From: an uncultured cyanobacterium
GTDB lineage: Bacteria > Cyanobacteriota > Cyanobacteriia > PCC-6307 > Cyanobiaceae
Direction of reading: 5' to 3'
Assembly (NCBI GenBank): GCA_963765575.1
Contig: CAVXWZ010000002.1
Coordinates: 608,001-672,000 of the forward strand
Length of the DNA stretch: 64,000 bases
The notes beneath the pieces are model-generated. The model saw only the letters and a program-made list of their open reading frames with translations. It had not been told where the DNA came from and did no database searches. This document shows, in pieces, positions 20,543 to 43,255 of the stretch. The translations under genes and the position numbers were made by a program. Positions within the stretch are counted from its first letter, which is position 1, and each line of letters begins with the position of its first letter.

Positions 20543-21638
20543 TCAGCTGGCCACGTAGGCCTCCACCGCGTCACCGAGCTGGCGCAGACGGGCCAGGGCA
20601 TCGCGCTCGAGGTTGCGCACCCGGTCACGGCTGATGCCGATGATGCGGCCGATGCCGGTGAGGCTCATGGGTTCGCCGCCCTCGGGCGCATCGGGGCAGG
20701 GGATGCCGTAGCGCATCTTCAGCACCCGCCCCTGCAGCTCCGGCAGCTGCTCCAGCAGCGCCCGCAGGTCACCCTTCAGGCACTCACCGTCCACCCGCTC
20801 ATCCGGCAGTTCCTCATCCCCGGCCAGCAGCTCCAGCAGCTCCGTGTCCTCACCGTCGCCCACCTTCGTCTCCAGGCTCACCGGCTGCCGCGCACGGCAC
20901 AGCAGGTCCTTCACCTCCTCCTCCGGCAGCTCCACGAACTCCGCCAGTTCCGTCACCGTCGGCGTGCGACCCAGCGTCTGGCTCAGCTCCCGCTGACCCT
21001 TCTTCAGCTTGTTCAGCGTTTCGGTGATGTGGATCGGCAGCCGGATCGTGCGGCTCTTCTCCGGCGATCGCCCGCGTGATCCCCTGCCGGATCCACCAGT
21101 AGGCATAGGTTGAAAATTTGTAGCCCCGCGTCGGGTCGAACTTCTCCACACCCCGCACCAGCCCGATCGTGCCCTCCTGGATCAGGTCCAGCAGTTCCAT
21201 GTTCCGCTTGGTGTATTTCTTCGCCACGCTCACCACCAGCCGCAGGTTCGCCGCCACCATCCGCTCCTTCGCCCGCCGGCCCGCCTGCAGCCGCTTCTTC
21301 AGCAGCAGCGGGCTCAGACCCGCCGCCGCCGCCAGCTCCACACCGCTCGGCTTGCTGCCGCCGGCCCGCATCGTCAGTTCCTGTTCGATCTCCTCCAGAC
21401 CCATCAGCTCCTGCACCTGGCGGCCCAGCGTGATCTCCTGCTCGTGGCTCAGCAGCGGCACCCGGCCGATGTCCCGCAGGTAGCTGCGCACCAGGTCGCC
21501 ATCGGCGGCGGGCTGGGAGCGGGAGGTCTTGGGGGCGATGGAGAGCTTGCGGGCGGGGCCGGAAGCCGCGGCAGCCGTGAGGCTGCTGGGCTGGTCAGTG
21601 CTGGGACGGTCCTGTACGGAAGCCAGTGCGGTAGTCAT
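20543..21638 (-). CDS. Group-2 sigma-70 factor (RpoD/SigA family), +1 frameshift at 21062-21065
   Basis: Region 1.2 [16 protein letters not shown], region 2 [13 protein letters not shown]…DLIQEG…[20 protein letters not shown], then after the frame change [11 protein letters not shown], region 4 [15 protein letters not shown]. Confidence 0.93.
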
Positions 21639-21748: not shown

Positions 21749-23156
21749 TCAGACACCGATCTTGGCCCGCAGCAGCCAGGCGGCGGTGGAGAGATAGATG
21801 AACACTCCGGCCACGTCAACCGCCGTGGTGATGAACGGTGCCGACATCAGCGCCGGATCCAGCCCCATGCGGTTGAACAGCAGCGGCAGGGAGGAGCCGG
21901 CGACCGCCGCCAGCAGGGAGATGGCCACCAGGCTCACCGCCACCGCCAGGGCCACCAGGGCGCTGCCCCCCATCAGCCAGGCCCAGGGGAACACCACGCA
22001 GGCCAGCAGCGCCCCGAGCAGCAACCCGGCCAGGGTTTCCCGTGCCACCGCCCGGGCCAGGCCCAACTGCTGGATGCGCTGGGTGCTGAGGCCGCGGATC
22101 ACCACCGTGGAGCTCTGGGCGCCCACGTTGCCCCCCGTGCCGATCAGCAGCGGAATGAAGGCGGCCAGCACCACCAGCCGCTCCAACACCGCCTGGTGGC
22201 CGGCGATCACCGCCGAGGTGCCGGAGTTGGCCACCAGCAGCACCAGCAGCCACACCACCCGCCGCCGGGCCACCGAGAACAGGCTGCTGCGGAAGTAGTC
22301 GTCCTCATCGCCCGCCTGCACCGCTCCCGCCGCATACAGGTCCCGCGTCGCCTCCTGCTCGATCACATCGATCACGTCGTCCACCGTCACGATCCCCACC
22401 AGCCGCTGCTCACGGTCCACCACAGGCATCGCCAGAAAGTCGTACCGCTGGATCGCTCGCGCCACCTCCTCCTGGTCCGTGTCCGTGCTCACCCTCACCA
22501 CATCCCGCGTCATCACATCCCCGATCCGCTCCTCCGGATCCGACACCACCAGGTCCCGCAACGACAAAATCCCCGTCAGGTGGCGCGACCCATCCGTCAC
22601 ATACAGCGAATACACCGTCTCCGTATCCCGCGCCCGCCGCCGCACCAGATCCAGCGCCTGGCGCCGCGCTGTGAAACTCCTTCAGGTCGATGAACTCCGG
22701 CGTCATCAACCGACCCGCCGTCTCCGGCGCATACCCCAGCAGTTGCGCCGTCACCCGACGCTCCGCCGGACTCAGTTCCGCCAGCAGCCGCCGCACCACC
22801 TTCGCCGGCAGTTCGTCGAACAGCCGCGCCCGGTCGTCCGGTGACATCTCCTCCACCAGCTCCAGCACCTCCCCCGAGCGCAGACGCTCCAGCAGGCTCT
22901 GCTGCACCTCCACCGGCAGATACTCATAAATGTCGATCGCCTCGTCCTTCGGCAGCAGCCGGAACGCCAGCGCCTGCAGCGTCCGCGGCAGACGCCCGAT
23001 CGCCTCCGCCGCATCCGCCTCCTGCACAGGCCGCAGCAGCAGCTTCGCTCCGTCGTAGTTCCCCGCCTGCAGCAGCGCCTCCAGCTGCGACGCCACCACC
23101 TCAGCGATGGGCGTGGCGCCGGCTTCGGCTCGGGTGGTCCCGGGGGTGAGGCTCAT
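21749..23156 (-). CDS. mgtE: Magnesium transporter MgtE, copy 1, +1 frameshift at 22661-22664
   Basis: MgtE N-domain (MSPDDRARLFDELP, YAPETAGRLMT), CBS pair, TM motifs FIPLLIGTGGNVGAQS and DPALMSAPFITTAVD. Confidence 0.92.
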
Positions 23157-24525
23157 GGTGTCGACCCCAGGCCAGGCAACAGCCAGCGGGCCGTGCGCAG
23201 GTAGATGACCACCCCGACCACATCCACGGCCGAGGTGATGAACGGTGCTGACATCAGCGCCGGATCCAGCCCCATGCGGTTGAACAGCAGCGGCAGGGAC
23301 GAGCCGGCGACGGCCGCCAGGGTGGTGATCGCCACCAGGCTGAGGCCGGTGGTCCAGGCCACGCGCAGATCCCCACCCACCTGCCAGGCCCAGGGCACCA
23401 CCGCTGCCATCAGCATCAGGCCCAGGATCAGGCCGGCGATGCCCTCACGCAGCACGGTGAGGCGGCGGCCGTTGATCAGCAGCTGCTGGGTGCTGAGGCC
23501 GCGGATCACCACCGTGGAGCTCTGGGCGCCCACGTTGCCCCCCGTGCCGATCAGCAGCGGAATGAAGGCGGCCAGCACCACCACCCGGCTGAGGATGTCC
23601 TCCTCACGGGCGATCACCGCAGCAGTGATGCTGTTGGCCACCAGCAGCACCAGCAGCCAGACGATGCGGCGGCGAACCACGGTGAACAGGCCGGTCTGGA
23701 AGTAGTCGTCCTCATCGCCCGCCTGCACCGCTCCCGCCGCATACAGGTCCCGCGTCGCCTCCTGCTCGATCACGTCGATCACGTCGTCCACCGTCACGAT
23801 CCCCACCAACCGCTGCTCACGGTCCACCACAGGCATCGCCAGAAAGTCGTACCGCTGGATCGCTCGCGCCACCTCCTCCTGGTCCGTGTCCGTGCTCACC
23901 CTCACCACATCCCGCGTCATCACATCCCCGATCCGCTCCTCCGGATCCGCCACCACCAGGTCCCGCAACGACAAAATCCCCGTCAGGTGGCGCGACCCAT
24001 CCGTCACATACAGCGAATACACCGTCTCGGTATCCCGCGCCCGCCGCCGCACCAGATCCAGCGCCTGGCGCCGCGCTGTGAAACTCCTTCAGGTCGATGA
24101 ACTCCGGCGTCATCAACCGACCCGCCGTCTCCGGCGCATACCCCAGCAGCTGCGCCGTCACCCGACGCTCCGCCGGGCTCAGTTCCGCCAGCAGACGCCG
24201 CACCACCTTCGCCGGCAGTTCGTCGAACAGCCGCGCCCGGTCGTCCGGTGACATCTCCTCCACCAGCTCCAGCACCTCCCCCGAGCGCAGACGCTCCAGC
24301 AGGCTCTGCTGCACCTCCACCGGCAGATACTCATAAATATCGATCGCCTCGTCCTTCGGCAGCAGCCGGAACGCCAGCGCCTGCAGCGTCCGCGGCAGAC
24401 GTCCGATCGCCTCCGCCGCGTCCACCTCCTGCACAGGCCGCAGCAGCAGCTTCGCTCCGTCGTAGTTCCCCGCCTGCAGCAGCGCCTCCAGCTGCGACGC
24501 CACCACCTCAGCGATGGGCGTGGCG
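22291..24525. repeat. 828-bp near-identical direct repeat (22291-23118 and 23698-24525), offset 1407 bp
   Basis: Compared by eye; only scattered substitutions (e.g. VVSDP/VVADP, QEADA/QEVDA). Two shorter shared blocks lie at the same offset: 22078-22176 / 23485-23583 and 21827-21913 / 23234-23320. Confidence 0.95.
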
Positions 24526-24569
24526 TGATTCACCCCACCGCGCTCAACCGAGCCGTTCGCCTCGCCCAT
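23153..24569 (-). CDS. mgtE: Magnesium transporter MgtE, copy 2, +1 frameshift at 24068-24071
   Basis: Same domains as copy 1; its stop overlaps the copy-1 ATG (ATGA). Confidence 0.92.
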
Positions 24570-25172: not shown

Positions 25173-25523
25173 TCAGCCGGCCAGCCAACCCCGGCGCAGG
25201 CCGGCGGTGGTGGGCAGTTCCACCTGCAGCCAACGTTCGCCGCCGGGGTGAGCCCAGTGGCGCAGCACCCGCAGGGGCACCCCCGGCTGGGTGCGGCTGA
25301 TCGCTGGAGCCTGGTGGCGCGGCGCGCAGCGCAGGGCCTGCGGCACCACCGACAGCAGCGGCTCCCGGCTGCTCTGGCGGCGGCGCAGCTCGGGCAGGCG
25401 CCAGTCGGCACCACCGGCGGGCAGGCCGGCAGGTGCGACCAGGGCGAATCCCAGCAGGGCGGCCAGGCGCCAGGCTGATGGCGTCACGCGGGAGGGTGGC
25501 GTCACGCGGGAGGGTGGCGTCAC
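25173..25523 (-). CDS. Small secreted SH3-like domain protein
   Basis: Signal-like ALLGFALVAPAGLPAGGA, PLRVLRHW, WLQVE…RRGWL; directly downstream of gyrB. Start uncertain because of the repeat. Confidence 0.65.
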   Translation of the reverse strand: MTPPSRVTPPSRVTPSAWRLAALLGFALVAPAGLPAGGADWRLPELRRRQSSREPLLSVVPQALRCAPRHQAPAISRTQPGVPLRVLRHWAHPGGERWLQVELPTTAGLRRGWLAG

Positions 25524-25533
25524 GCGGGGGAGG
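25480..25533. repeat. 18-bp tandem repeat GGCGTCACGCGGGAGGGT x3 (third copy imperfect)
   Basis: Read directly; encodes VTPPSR repeats at the N-terminus of the SH3-like gene. Confidence 0.9.
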
Positions 25534-25561: not shown

Positions 25562-27604
<2,043 letters not shown>

Positions 27605-40294: not shown

Positions 40295-43255
40295 GTGGCC
40301 TCGCAAGCCGAGCAGCAGCTGTCGCTCGTGCCCGAGGCCGCCGTGCAGGGCAGCCTGTTCAGCGCGCCCGCCCCGGCATCGCCCGCCTCGGCTGCCGCTG
40401 AGCCCGGTCCCCCCACCCTTGCCGCCCAGGTCCTCGATGCCCAGGCGCTCGCCGCCGACGCCAGCGCTCGCCCTCGCCGCCGGCGCCAGCCCCCCCCGGC
40501 CGCCGCCACCACGCCAGCGGCGGCTGCAACGCCACCCCTGAACGGGTCCTGCAGCCCACGCGACGCCGAGCCCGCCGCCGACGCCGACGCCAGCGCCGAC
40601 TCCGACCTGCCCCCCTGGCACCACCACGGCCTGGTGGATCCCGAGCAGCTGACGCCGATGCTGCGCCACTACGTGCAGCTCAAGCGTGCCCACCCCGAGC
40701 GGCTGCTGCTCTACCGCCTGGGCGACTTCTTCGAGTGCTTCTTCGAGGACGCCCTGACCGTGTCGCGCCTGCTGGAGCTCACCCTCACCGGCAAGGAGGG
40801 CGGCAAGGCGATCGGCCGGGTGCCGATGGCCGGCATCCCCCACCACGCCGCTGAGCGCTACTGCGCCGAGCTGGTGCGCCGCGGCCTCAGCGTCGCCCTC
40901 TGTGACCAGCTCGAGGAGGCCAGCGCCCGCAGCCAGGGCCGCGGCGAGCTGCTGCGCCGCGACATCACCCGCGTGCTCACCCCTGGCACGGTGCTGGAGG
41001 AGGGCCTGCTCGCGGCCCGCCGCAACAACTGGCTCTGCGCCGTGGTCCTCGACGACGGGGCCGGCAGCGACGGCTCGGCCGCCCGCTGGGGCCTGGCGGT
41101 GGCCGATGTCAGCACCGGCGAATTCCGTGTCAGCGAGCGGCTTGGCAGCGACGCCCTGCACCAGGAGCTGCTGCGGCTGGAGGCCGCCGAGGTGCTCTGG
41201 CCCGGCGCCACGGCCGCAGCCCCGGGCTGGTGTCCCGCCGGCCTGGGCCTCACCCCCCGGCCCCGCACCCCCTTTGAGGCCCCGGAAGCCGCCGCCAGCC
41301 TGCGCCAGCGCTTCGGCCTGGCCAGCCTCGATGGCCTGGGGCTGGGGGAGATGCCCCTGGCCCTGCGCGCCGCCGGCGGCCTGGTGCACTACCTCGATGG
41401 CACCCTGGGCGCCCCCCGGATCGGCGCCGGGGAGGCTGGGCTCGATCAGCGCGTACCGCTGGATCCGCCCACCTGCTGGCACGCCGGCGATGCCCTGGTG
41501 CTCGATGCCGCCACCCGCCGCAACCTCGAGCTCACCCGCACCCAGCTGGGCGGCAGCCTGCAGGGCTCCCTGCTCTGGGCCATCGACCGCACCCACACCG
41601 CCATGGGCGGCCGCTGCCTGCGCCGCTGGCTGGAGGCGCCACTGGTGGAGCACCGAGCGATCCTGGCCCGCCAGGACGGGGTGAGCGAGCTGGTGGGGCA
41701 GCGGCCGCTGCGCCTGGCCCTGCGGCGCCTGTTGCGGCCCATGGGCGACCTGGAGCGGCTGGCGGGCCGGGCCGGGGCCGGCAGCGCCTCGGCCCGCGAC
41801 CTGGTGGCCCTCGCCGACGGCCTTGAGCGCCTGCCCCAGCTGGCGGCCCTGCTCGGCGGCGCCAGCAGCGCACCGCTGCGCGAGCTGGCCCGCCCCTGGC
41901 CGGAGCTGGCCGCCGTGGCGGCCGAGCTGCGCCACACCCTGGTCGAGTCCCCGCCGCTGGCCCTCAGCGAGGGCGGGCTGATCCACGACGGCGTCGACGC
42001 CCAGCTCGATGGCCTGCGCAACCAGCTCGACGACCAGGACCGCTGGCTGGCACAACAGGAGGCCAGTGAGCGCAGCCGCAGTGGCATCAGCACCCTGAAG
42101 CTTCAGTACCACCGCACCTTCGGCTATTTCCTGGCGGTGAGCCGGGCCAAGGCCGCAGCGGTGCCGGAGCACTGGATCCGCCGCCAGACCCTGGCCAACG
42201 AGGAGCGCTTCGTCACCCCGGAGCTGAAGGCCCGCGAGGGCCGCATCCAGCAGCTGCGGGCCCGGGCCGCCCAGCGCGAATACGAGCTGTTCGGCGCCCT
42301 GCGCAGCCGCGTGGGCCACCAGGCCGCGGCGATCCGCACGGCTGCCCGGCTGGTGGCCGAGCTCGATGCCATCGCCGGGCTGGCGGAGGTGGCCGGCACC
42401 GGCGGCTACTGCCGCCCACAGATCACCGACCCCGACGGCGCCGATGCCCGGGTGGTGCAGATCGAAGCCGGCCGCCATCCGGTGGTGGAACAGCTGCTGG
42501 TGGAGCAGGGCTTCACCGCCAACGGCATCGCCCTGGGCCGATCGGCGGCACCGGGCAGCGGCAGCGCCGGCGACGCCGACGGCCCCCCCGACCTGCTGAT
42601 CCTCACCGGCCCCAACGCCAGCGGCAAGAGCTGCTATCTGCGCCAGACGGGGCTGCTGCAGCTGATGGCCCAGATGGGCAGCTGGATCCCGGCCCGCTCC
42701 GCACGCCTCGGCATCGCCGACCGCATCTTCACCCGCGTCGGCGCCGGCGACGACCTGGCCGCCGGCCAGTCCACCTTCATGGTGGAGATGGCCGAAACCG
42801 CCAACATCCTTCACCACGCCACGCCGCGCTCGCTGGTGCTGCTCGATGAGATCGGCCGCGGCACCGCCACCTTCGACGGCCTCTCGATCGCCTGGGCGGT
42901 GGCCGAACACCTGGCCACCGCCATTGGCGCCCGCAGCGTCTTCGCCACCCACTACCACGAGCTCAACGAGCTGGCGGCCCTGCTGCCCAACGTGGCCAAC
43001 GCCCGGGTGCTGGTGGAGGAAACCGGCCACGACCTGCGCTTCCTGCACCGGGTGGTGCCCGGCGGCGCCAGCCGCAGCTACGGCATCGAGGCCGCGCGCC
43101 TGGCCGGCGTGCCGGCGCCGGTGGTGCTGCGTGCCCGCCAGGTGCTCGGCCGCATCGAGGCCAACAGCCAGATCAGCCTCGCTCAGCCCGCTTCCGGCGA
43201 GACGGGCGCAGACGGGGACACGGACGGGGACACAGAACGAGGGCTCGCCGCCTGA
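40295..43255 (+). CDS. mutS: DNA mismatch repair protein MutS
   Basis: [71 protein letters not shown]. Start approximate. Confidence 0.97.

Follow-up and report, generated by a model that had tools for sequence, protein, structure and literature searches.

In a 64,000-nucleotide stretch of DNA from an uncultured cyanobacterium of the family Cyanobiaceae (the window; contig CAVXWZ010000002.1, positions 608,001 to 672,000) we studied two tandem mgtE genes whose common part has been recoded toward codons ending in G. The recoding of these converting paralogues was confirmed and is strong: among the G and C residues at four-fold degenerate sites, the share of G (hereafter G share) is 0.92 in the block common to both copies and 0.30 genome-wide (Fisher p=2.6e-37). 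Comparison with related genomes showed a duplication with repeated gene conversion, a C-to-G polarity of substitution, confinement of the shift to converting DNA and, with exceptions, a dependence on orientation. With moderate confidence we consider the tract to be the footprint of strand-biased gene conversion with mismatch recognition; that conversion is biased in one way or another, whether by mismatch recognition or by pairing, appears highly probable. In our numbering of genomes (G) and contigs (C) the window is G000:C2:608001-672000, and the G000 assembly comprises 2.71 Mb with 69% GC in 11 contigs. Its genes, among them cpcBA and a cyanobacterial sigma factor, suggest a picocyanobacterium. 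In total, 2553 coding segments were called across G000 with a self-trained model, while reading frames at lower-GC loci of relatives were taken from blastx.

Both genes lie on the minus strand, copy 1 (upstream) at 23153..24569 and copy 2 (downstream) at 21749..23156, and were delimited from their open reading frames and Pfam domains. By domain content (MgtE_N, CBS and MgtE membrane domains, with a TIGR00400 match of 361.6 bits against a cut-off of 232.75 in the C-terminal part of copy 1) they are MgtE magnesium transporter genes, with Mg2+ transport as the predicted function. The whole duplication measures 1350 nt and is 90% identical over 1356 nt. As the sequence-only reading had claimed, it includes an 828-bp common block, which comprises MgtE_N and CBS (23698..24525 in copy 1, about 22291..23118 in copy 2 with the alignment reaching 23120; 828-830 nt, about 99% identity, 11 differing codons). 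The transmembrane (TM) halves, at 23153..23697 in copy 1 (TM1 clade, normal codons) and 21749..22290 in copy 2 (TM2 clade, near-normal codons), have diverged.

At Thr, Ala, Gly, Ser, Pro and Arg codons the third positions of the block read A6 C7 G82 T9 in copy 1 and A5 C7 G86 T8 in copy 2, and no CTC or GTC codon remains. The G share of the TM halves of the same genes is 0.30 (p=3e-16 against the block) and 0.43 (p=1e-12), and that of the single-copy neighbours is 0.20 (gyrB, 25562..27529, an unskewed control on the same minus strand as mgtE) and 0.03 (the glutathione peroxidase gene gpx), so that the neighbours and membrane parts indeed lack the dialect. A change-point fit placed the G-recoded tracts at 23721..24499 and 22314..23092 (minus strand; 95 and 97% G among G/C four-fold sites, respectively). 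Their ends lie at most about 26 nt from the repeat edges, which bears out a switch in mid-gene at the repeat boundary. Third-position GC skew is +0.64 versus about 0 in single copies, the first and second positions are unchanged, GC content at third positions is ordinary (0.87 vs 0.90), and the amino-acid changes in the block show no trend toward G. Of the eight segments with the strongest G dialect among the 2553 of G000, seven belong to the mgtE blocks and to a pair of sigma-factor genes described below.

The dialect had been described as G/T-ending and C-avoiding, and the T part proved weak. The T share at two-fold sites is 0.33-0.38 in the block versus 0.22 (p=0.014); the rise is driven by Tyr (18 T:9 C in the block, 22:78 in single copies), whereas Asp is unchanged (21:54 and 77:196, respectively). 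The block therefore carries essentially a G dialect rather than a G/T dialect. Nor does all shared DNA carry it: a short 103-nt TM block (23485..23587, minus strand), 99% identical to 22078-22180, reads 5 G:10 C and serves as an internal control without a G shift.

To polarise the substitutions, the majority state of single-copy mgtE was taken as ancestral. At four-fold sites of the block C changed to G at 47 of 50 positions, G to C at 0 of 53 and C to T at 0 of 50, while C changed to T at 10 of 40 two-fold sites. In the sigma gene 23 of 38 four-fold C sites became G, with no change from G to C. The spectrum, together with the unchanged first and second positions, thus points to a force specific to C versus G. 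We regard it as improbable that the shift is mutational in origin, i.e., that converting DNA, while single-stranded or resynthesised, loses C from the leading-sense strand through deamination or error-prone synthesis, with GC pressure parking the sites at G. The avoidance of C, the Tyr codon TAT, a few TTG codons and a direction equal to that of the ordinary leading-strand skew agree with such an origin, and lagging-strand deamination is among the options listed for comparable repeats in PMC8256042. Loss of C to T should, however, raise T/C odds equally, and they rose only about 2-fold at two-fold sites versus 29-fold for G/C; the absence of C-to-T change at four-fold sites also speaks against it, as does a background G share of only 0.303 on the leading versus 0.289 on the lagging strand. 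Deamination alone was rejected since it does not fit these odds ratios; a direct C-to-G mutator is a possible variant. Thus, of the strand-asymmetric mutation or repair bias suggested for homogenised DNA by the sequence-only reading, a bias of conversion, by repair or by pairing, was retained and a pure mutation bias fits worse. The tract resembles ordinary replication-strand GC skew in placing G on the leading strand and differs from it in reaching 0.92 and in being confined to converting DNA.

We next compared tandem and single-copy mgtE loci. The gene was matched in 133 of 150 other genomes of the family, almost always once. Among the best 29 non-self loci the G share of the part corresponding to the common block (N-block) was 0.24-0.43 in 28; the exception, in G033, is a chimera of a copy-1 5' part and a copy-2 3' part from the duplication clade. 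Within the genus a match was obtained in 28 of 32 genomes, and nine genomes, including G000, contained the tandem. The G share of the N-block was 0.37-0.95 in these nine and 0.27-0.36 in 11 primary single-copy congeners, without overlap, while the TM halves did not differ (p=0.70). The tree of TM halves separates copy 1 from copy 2, with all nine tandem genomes present in both clades, which indicates one duplication; within each tandem genome, in contrast, the two genes have near-identical N-blocks. By this sequence comparison the cytoplasmic domains were shown to overwrite each other by repeated gene conversion, as had been proposed. The outcomes that the sequence-only reading had named as speaking against it (an insignificant skew, the same skew in single-copy orthologues, or boundaries unrelated to the repeat) were not obtained: the skew is significant, absent from the primary single-copy orthologues and bounded by the repeat.

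Five genomes (G033, G159, G168, G173 and G158) have one G-rich mgtE with a copy-1 type start and a G share of 0.78-0.96; in the four of them that have a TM half it is of the copy-2 type, nested in the copy-2 clade. These chimeric single loci, L061 (G033:C21:202219-203551), L089, L090 and L036, are still G-rich and likely represent pop-out deletions through the common block. No copy-1 TM half was detected in the near-complete genomes G033, G159 and G173 (G168 and G158, being incomplete, give no information), which disfavours collapsed assembly as the source of these single genes. Since tandem and single copies differ without overlap and the relics derive from the duplication clade, the G skew followed the duplication. 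Its extent is graded: at codons 61-140 the G share is 0.65-0.96 in all nine tandems versus 0.29-0.61 in singles, and among tandem genomes the codons beyond are shifted only in the group of G000. It should be mentioned that the gyrB tree puts the tandem genomes into two groups, and therefore repeated transfer or loss of the tandem cassette is possible. In all nine genomes the tandem combines one common cytoplasmic regulatory domain with membrane domains of two old and different types, an arrangement suggestive of two kinds of pore, or of heterodimers, subject to the same regulation.

A second case lies next to the tandem. The gene of a cyanobacterial sigma-70 factor (20543..21638, minus strand) has regions 1.2-3 homogenised with those of a second, distant gene (G000:C11:644502-645411; 95% identity over 914 nt), and its G-recoded tract (20727..21475, minus strand) has 76% G versus 11% outside. 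The second gene as a whole spans G000:C11:644478-645458, and many draft contigs break at the sigma pair. Across many genera, wherever both copies were fetched from a genome, they proved homogenised, with region 4, the part reading the -35 element, diverged, and the pair is G-shifted in most genomes (e.g., 0.62-0.89 within the genus). Two genomes with a single sigma copy show no shift (0.27 and 0.28). In G077, G106, G132 and G176 the G share of the sigma pair is 0.73-0.83, and the single mgtE next to it, encoded on the same strand, is unskewed, which rules out a regional or gene-specific bias. Nothing pertinent on concerted evolution of the sigma pair or on an orientation rule for the skew was found in the open-access literature.

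The sequence-only reading had raised the question of whether the sign follows the coding strand or the replichore. In G000 the two replichores can be told apart by T versus A at four-fold sites and hardly by GC skew, and we therefore marked the leading strand by T/(T+A) at these sites, which assigned 34 of 34 held-out 20-kb windows correctly. A switch beside dnaN, at about 55-60 kb of contig C5, is the likely origin and another at about 250-300 kb of C8 the likely terminus. All four skewed copies in G000 (the mgtE and sigma pairs) lie on the leading strand. Sigma pairs with copies in opposite orientation to the fork (G093, G146, G236 and, ambiguously, G022) had a G share of 0.19-0.33 (n=4) and co-oriented pairs one of 0.25-0.85 (n=20; p=0.002, for genus means p=0.008); the opposite pair of G236 has 0.33 and the co-oriented pair of its congener G047 0.56. 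Orientation of the co-oriented pairs was taken from flank composition in 11 of 20 and from the position of dnaN alone in 9 of 20. For G118 and G187, where the two disagreed, the flanks were used, which in one case helps and in the other hurts the model. The test left out G033, G157, G162, G176, G229, G231 and other drafts on account of the orientation of the second copy, as well as G034, in which one, AT-rich copy was fetched.

Other paralogues, some of which were named in the sequence-only reading as places to look for the same shift, do not show it as the sigma pair does. The paralogues psbA, psbD, cpcBA, tuf and rrn evolve in concert and are usually treated as compositionally neutral; like them, the mgtE and sigma copies are closer within than between genomes, but here the change is directional and orientation-dependent. 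In G000 the pairs that we take, from their motifs, to be psbA (identical copies) and psbD have one copy per strand and a G share like that of psbB/psbC (0.11-0.16). The tandem cpcBA genes mirror the orientation rule at Leu and Val codons, where the G share is 0.86-0.89 on the leading strand (G009, G069, G187; psbB 0.60-0.72) and 0.18-0.36 on the lagging strand (G000, G077, G132, G106, G058, G093; psbB 0.45-0.69), with 0.65-0.68 in single-copy cpcBA (G125, G149). Flanks confirmed the orientation for G009, G069, G187, G077, G106, G058 and G132, not for G093 and G125. The homogenised speD duplicates of G000 (C11:290277-290675 and C1:192911-193342) are both on the lagging strand, and duplicated homogenised speD is C-shifted in five of five genomes of the genus (0.04-0.17 versus 0.19-0.44 in 20 single-copy genomes). 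Taken together, the sign of the shift probably follows the replication strand and not the coding strand, the leading strand gaining G, with exceptions.

An effect of the coding strand or of selection (expression-linked codons, RNA-templated copying, R-loops, conversion of an already skewed tract, or a foreign segment) is already largely refuted and seems very unlikely to us. The mgtE and sigma pairs alone cannot separate coding from leading strand, and the split of tandem genomes in the gyrB tree leaves room for horizontal movement of the cassette. The shift nevertheless stops in mid-gene, is lacking in single-copy orthologues on the same strand, inverts its sign with replication orientation and is graded inside the duplication clade only; normal third-position GC content, amino-acid changes without a G trend and unchanged first-position skew point the same way. 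A foreign origin of the block was rejected on that normal GC content and on the closeness of its protein to orthologues.

Several observations weigh against strand-biased conversion or its orientation rule. No skew is seen in four of the 20 sigma pairs that are both homogenised and co-oriented (G069, 0.25; G187, 0.38; G080, 0.38; G037, 0.40), and therefore homogenisation and orientation are not sufficient. In cpcBA the sign appears at Leu and Val only, the Thr, Ala, Gly, Ser, Pro and Arg sites remaining C/T in both orientations; the contrast with psbB is not significant in G187 (p=0.08) and G093 (p=0.42); and single-copy apcAB of G000 is likewise C-rich at Leu and Val (19 G:21 C). The orientation of speD is firm only in G000, since the flank assignments in relatives are mostly non-significant, and that for copy b of G155 pointed in the opposite direction. 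The orientation tests lack phylogenetic independence, since one genus supplied all three cpcBA tandems on the leading strand and one genus two of the four opposite sigma pairs; G022, as noted, is ambiguous. Finally, in seven intermediate genomes codons 201-260 of mgtE are 93-98% identical at third positions without a G shift, and over 22 bins the correlation of identity with G excess is loose (rho=0.40, p=0.06), which suggests that the excess reflects conversion history built up over time rather than present similarity as such. The broader idea that all homogenised repeats shift to G was rejected: among the matches listed, pooled codons of repeats at least 95% identical have a normal G share, many of these repeats being contig overlaps or recent duplicates.

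We infer that conversion at the fork exchanges a fixed strand and that C:C and G:G heteroduplexes meet unequal fates. In the favoured model of strand-biased conversion, the repeated mutual overwriting of the cytoplasmic domains that followed the single tandem duplication, as shown above, would be tied to the replication fork, so that the same strand would be exchanged each time. A C-versus-G difference between the copies would then give a C:C or a G:G heteroduplex, depending on the donor allele, and, if the two are treated unequally, the allele with G on the leading-sense strand would win more often. In the version that we prefer, RecA would repair a lagging-strand gap from the paralogue, with the leading-sense strand of the recipient pairing with the lagging-sense strand of the donor, as the geometry of lagging-strand gap repair has it. 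A donor with G on the leading-sense strand would produce C:C, which is hardly seen by Escherichia coli repair, and the reverse would produce G:G, the best recognised mismatch. By analogy with E. coli, MutS1 without MutL may block or abort G:G (and G:T) heteroduplexes and miss C:C. Selection would hold the protein sequence, so that only silent sites turn over, and copies co-oriented to the fork would reinforce the drive while opposite copies would cancel it. This geometry would yield the observed sign, the cancellation in opposite pairs and the weak C-to-T component. The G dialect itself is proposed to be a by-product and not a functional codon code.

A less probable version of biased conversion, though one we rate above a mutational origin, is independent of MutS and has the opposite geometry: the strand exchanged, by template switching or at fork restart, would be the leading-sense one, and pairing would tolerate G:G or G:T better than C:C or A:C. 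It draws on duplex stability or on the preference of RecA for G/T-rich single strands. It gives the same sign rule, C-to-G spectrum and weak C-to-T change as the favoured model, needs no MutL and fits the equal presence of MutS1 in lineages with and without skew, but alone it leaves the four unskewed co-oriented pairs unexplained.

The window contains an intact mutS1 reading frame (40649..43186, plus strand), a candidate factor with a putative role in the recoding. MutS1 was present in five of five genomes searched. MutL was found in none of five genomes by each of two models (nine genomes in all), and the NucS_C profile matched 0 of 61 genomes (its control matched in 6 of 14) and NucS_N 0 of 1. 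Recoding dependent on NucS/EndoMS was accordingly rejected for the genomes searched, and MutS1 stands as an orphan mismatch sensor where neither mutL nor nucS was found. In PMC5101192, mutS is reported from nearly all cyanobacteria and mutL as patchy. For E. coli, PMC3167615 describes C:C as very poorly and G:G as most efficiently corrected, and PMC6382021 describes inhibition by MutS of RecA branch migration through divergent DNA. The latter paper also contains a point against our model: MutS of Bacillus subtilis is no anti-recombinase and can assist exchange, and therefore the behaviour of MutS cannot be assumed here. The allelic replacement in E. coli presented in PMC3167615 resembles our case in that C:C escapes, G:G is removed and one replication strand is exchanged far more efficiently than the other; it differs in being engineered oligonucleotide recombination with full MutSL, whereas here the process is natural, acts over evolutionary time and MutL was not found.

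The sequence-only reading knew of no described mechanism. The phenomenon had in fact been named, as GRINS (Nivina 2021, PMC8256042), in a paper that states the mechanism as unknown and proposes that skew came before conversion. GRINS are defined there as duplications of >500 bp with >80% identity and mean absolute GC and TA skews each >0.15 (150-nt windows, step 30). The mgtE block exceeds these values in length (828-830 nt, 1350 nt for the whole duplication), identity (99% in the block, 90% over 1356 nt) and GC skew (0.30 in each block, where the 99th percentile for random stretches of 830 nt is 0.18). As in GRINS, its skew is strongest at third codon positions, and gene conversion is evident from N-blocks near-identical within genomes beside TM halves in two old clades. 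TA skew is only 0.07 in both blocks, and therefore the block is not a formal member of the class. Over the whole duplication TA skew is 0.13 and 0.175, the latter value stemming from the hydrophobic TM half. The sigma pair, at 0.18-0.19, is nominally above the cut-off, but with opposite sign, and 39% of random stretches exceed that cut-off as well. A correlation of GC with TA skew, typical of GRINS and outside their formal definition, is lacking in the blocks (r=0.11-0.12). The mgtE block is thus a G-only, GRINS-like variant missed by the published filter and not a new class of element. No mgtE or sigma entries occur in one supplementary text file of PMC8256042.

The mgtE tract and GRINS share the abrupt skew, conversion and a preserved protein, and the graded stages and single-copy relics of mgtE fit the life cycle proposed for GRINS. 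They differ in that (i) the mgtE tract is G-only and, like the sigma tract, lies in a core gene, whereas GRINS lie in polyketide synthase (PKS) genes or transposases, 77% of cyanobacterial GRINS overlapping the latter (PMC8256042); (ii) duplication precedes skew here, whereas the opposite order was proposed for GRINS; and (iii) the sign tracks the replication strand here, whereas PKS clusters show both signs on one strand, which according to PMC8256042 replication bias cannot explain. The replication-sign rule leaves these clusters unsettled.

The origin, the order of events and the sign were left open for GRINS, and the mgtE locus offers natural experiments for all three: tandem and single mgtE within one genus, graded stages, pop-out relics and a sigma pair varying in fork orientation, with cpcBA and speD as mirror cases. 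The mgtE case is unusually well controlled, since it fixes the order of events, the type of substitution and a probable sign rule, and it makes the mechanism of recoding directly testable. Only tentatively, and with less than even expectation, can the model be extended to GRINS in general, fork-coupled conversion exchanging a fixed strand and keto:keto pairs (G:G, G:T, T:T) faring differently from amino:amino pairs (C:C, C:A, A:A). Such a rule, if true, would suffice to enrich G (and T) on one strand of every long-converting repeat and explain the covariation of GC and TA skew with a sign set by fork orientation, while the flavour, G-only or G+T, would depend on the mismatch sensor, MutS or NucS. 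Picocyanobacteria with MutS1 and without MutL would then show a previously unrecognised, strand-specific biased gene conversion on core genes. Our data point to a bacterial conversion bias that is strand-specific rather than GC-directed and strong enough to override codon preference. Tracts recoded in this way look like horizontal transfer or an unusual expression bias, and saturation with G at third positions dates the duration of conversion between paralogues.

The genes around the tandem are arranged in the order gyrB (minus), glutathione peroxidase (plus), mgtE copy 1, mgtE copy 2 and the sigma-70 gene (all minus). One extra base splits each of the last three, near 24067, 22663 and 21063, respectively. 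Independent public contigs omit one base at 24067, 22663 and 21061-21063 (runs with a small share were left out of this comparison), and relatives carry unbroken frames in mgtE and the sigma gene, for which reasons the extra bases are very likely assembly errors; genuine, co-converted frameshifts are disfavoured on the same grounds. One contig of public run X5 (depth about 6) spans 23249 back to 21843, as if the copy-2 membrane half lay upstream, and could reflect a third copy, conversion or a mis-join across 50 shared bases.

Many indel errors are suggested for the assembly as a whole by 222 abutting out-of-frame segment pairs among the 2553 segments. A sequence motif as their cause was not supported, with GGCGCC near 27 of 222 junctions (17 expected) and other motifs at chance. 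Contigs C5, C7, C9 and C10 repeat long stretches of other contigs. At the end of contig C8 (G000:C8:373651-376417) a tandem NADH-dehydrogenase-like duplication (94% over 1.3 kb) has a patchy G share of up to 0.5-0.6 and many frame breaks, and may represent early recoding or an assembly artefact. Just downstream of gyrB, at 25483-25530, an 18-nt G-rich unit occurs in three head-to-tail copies.

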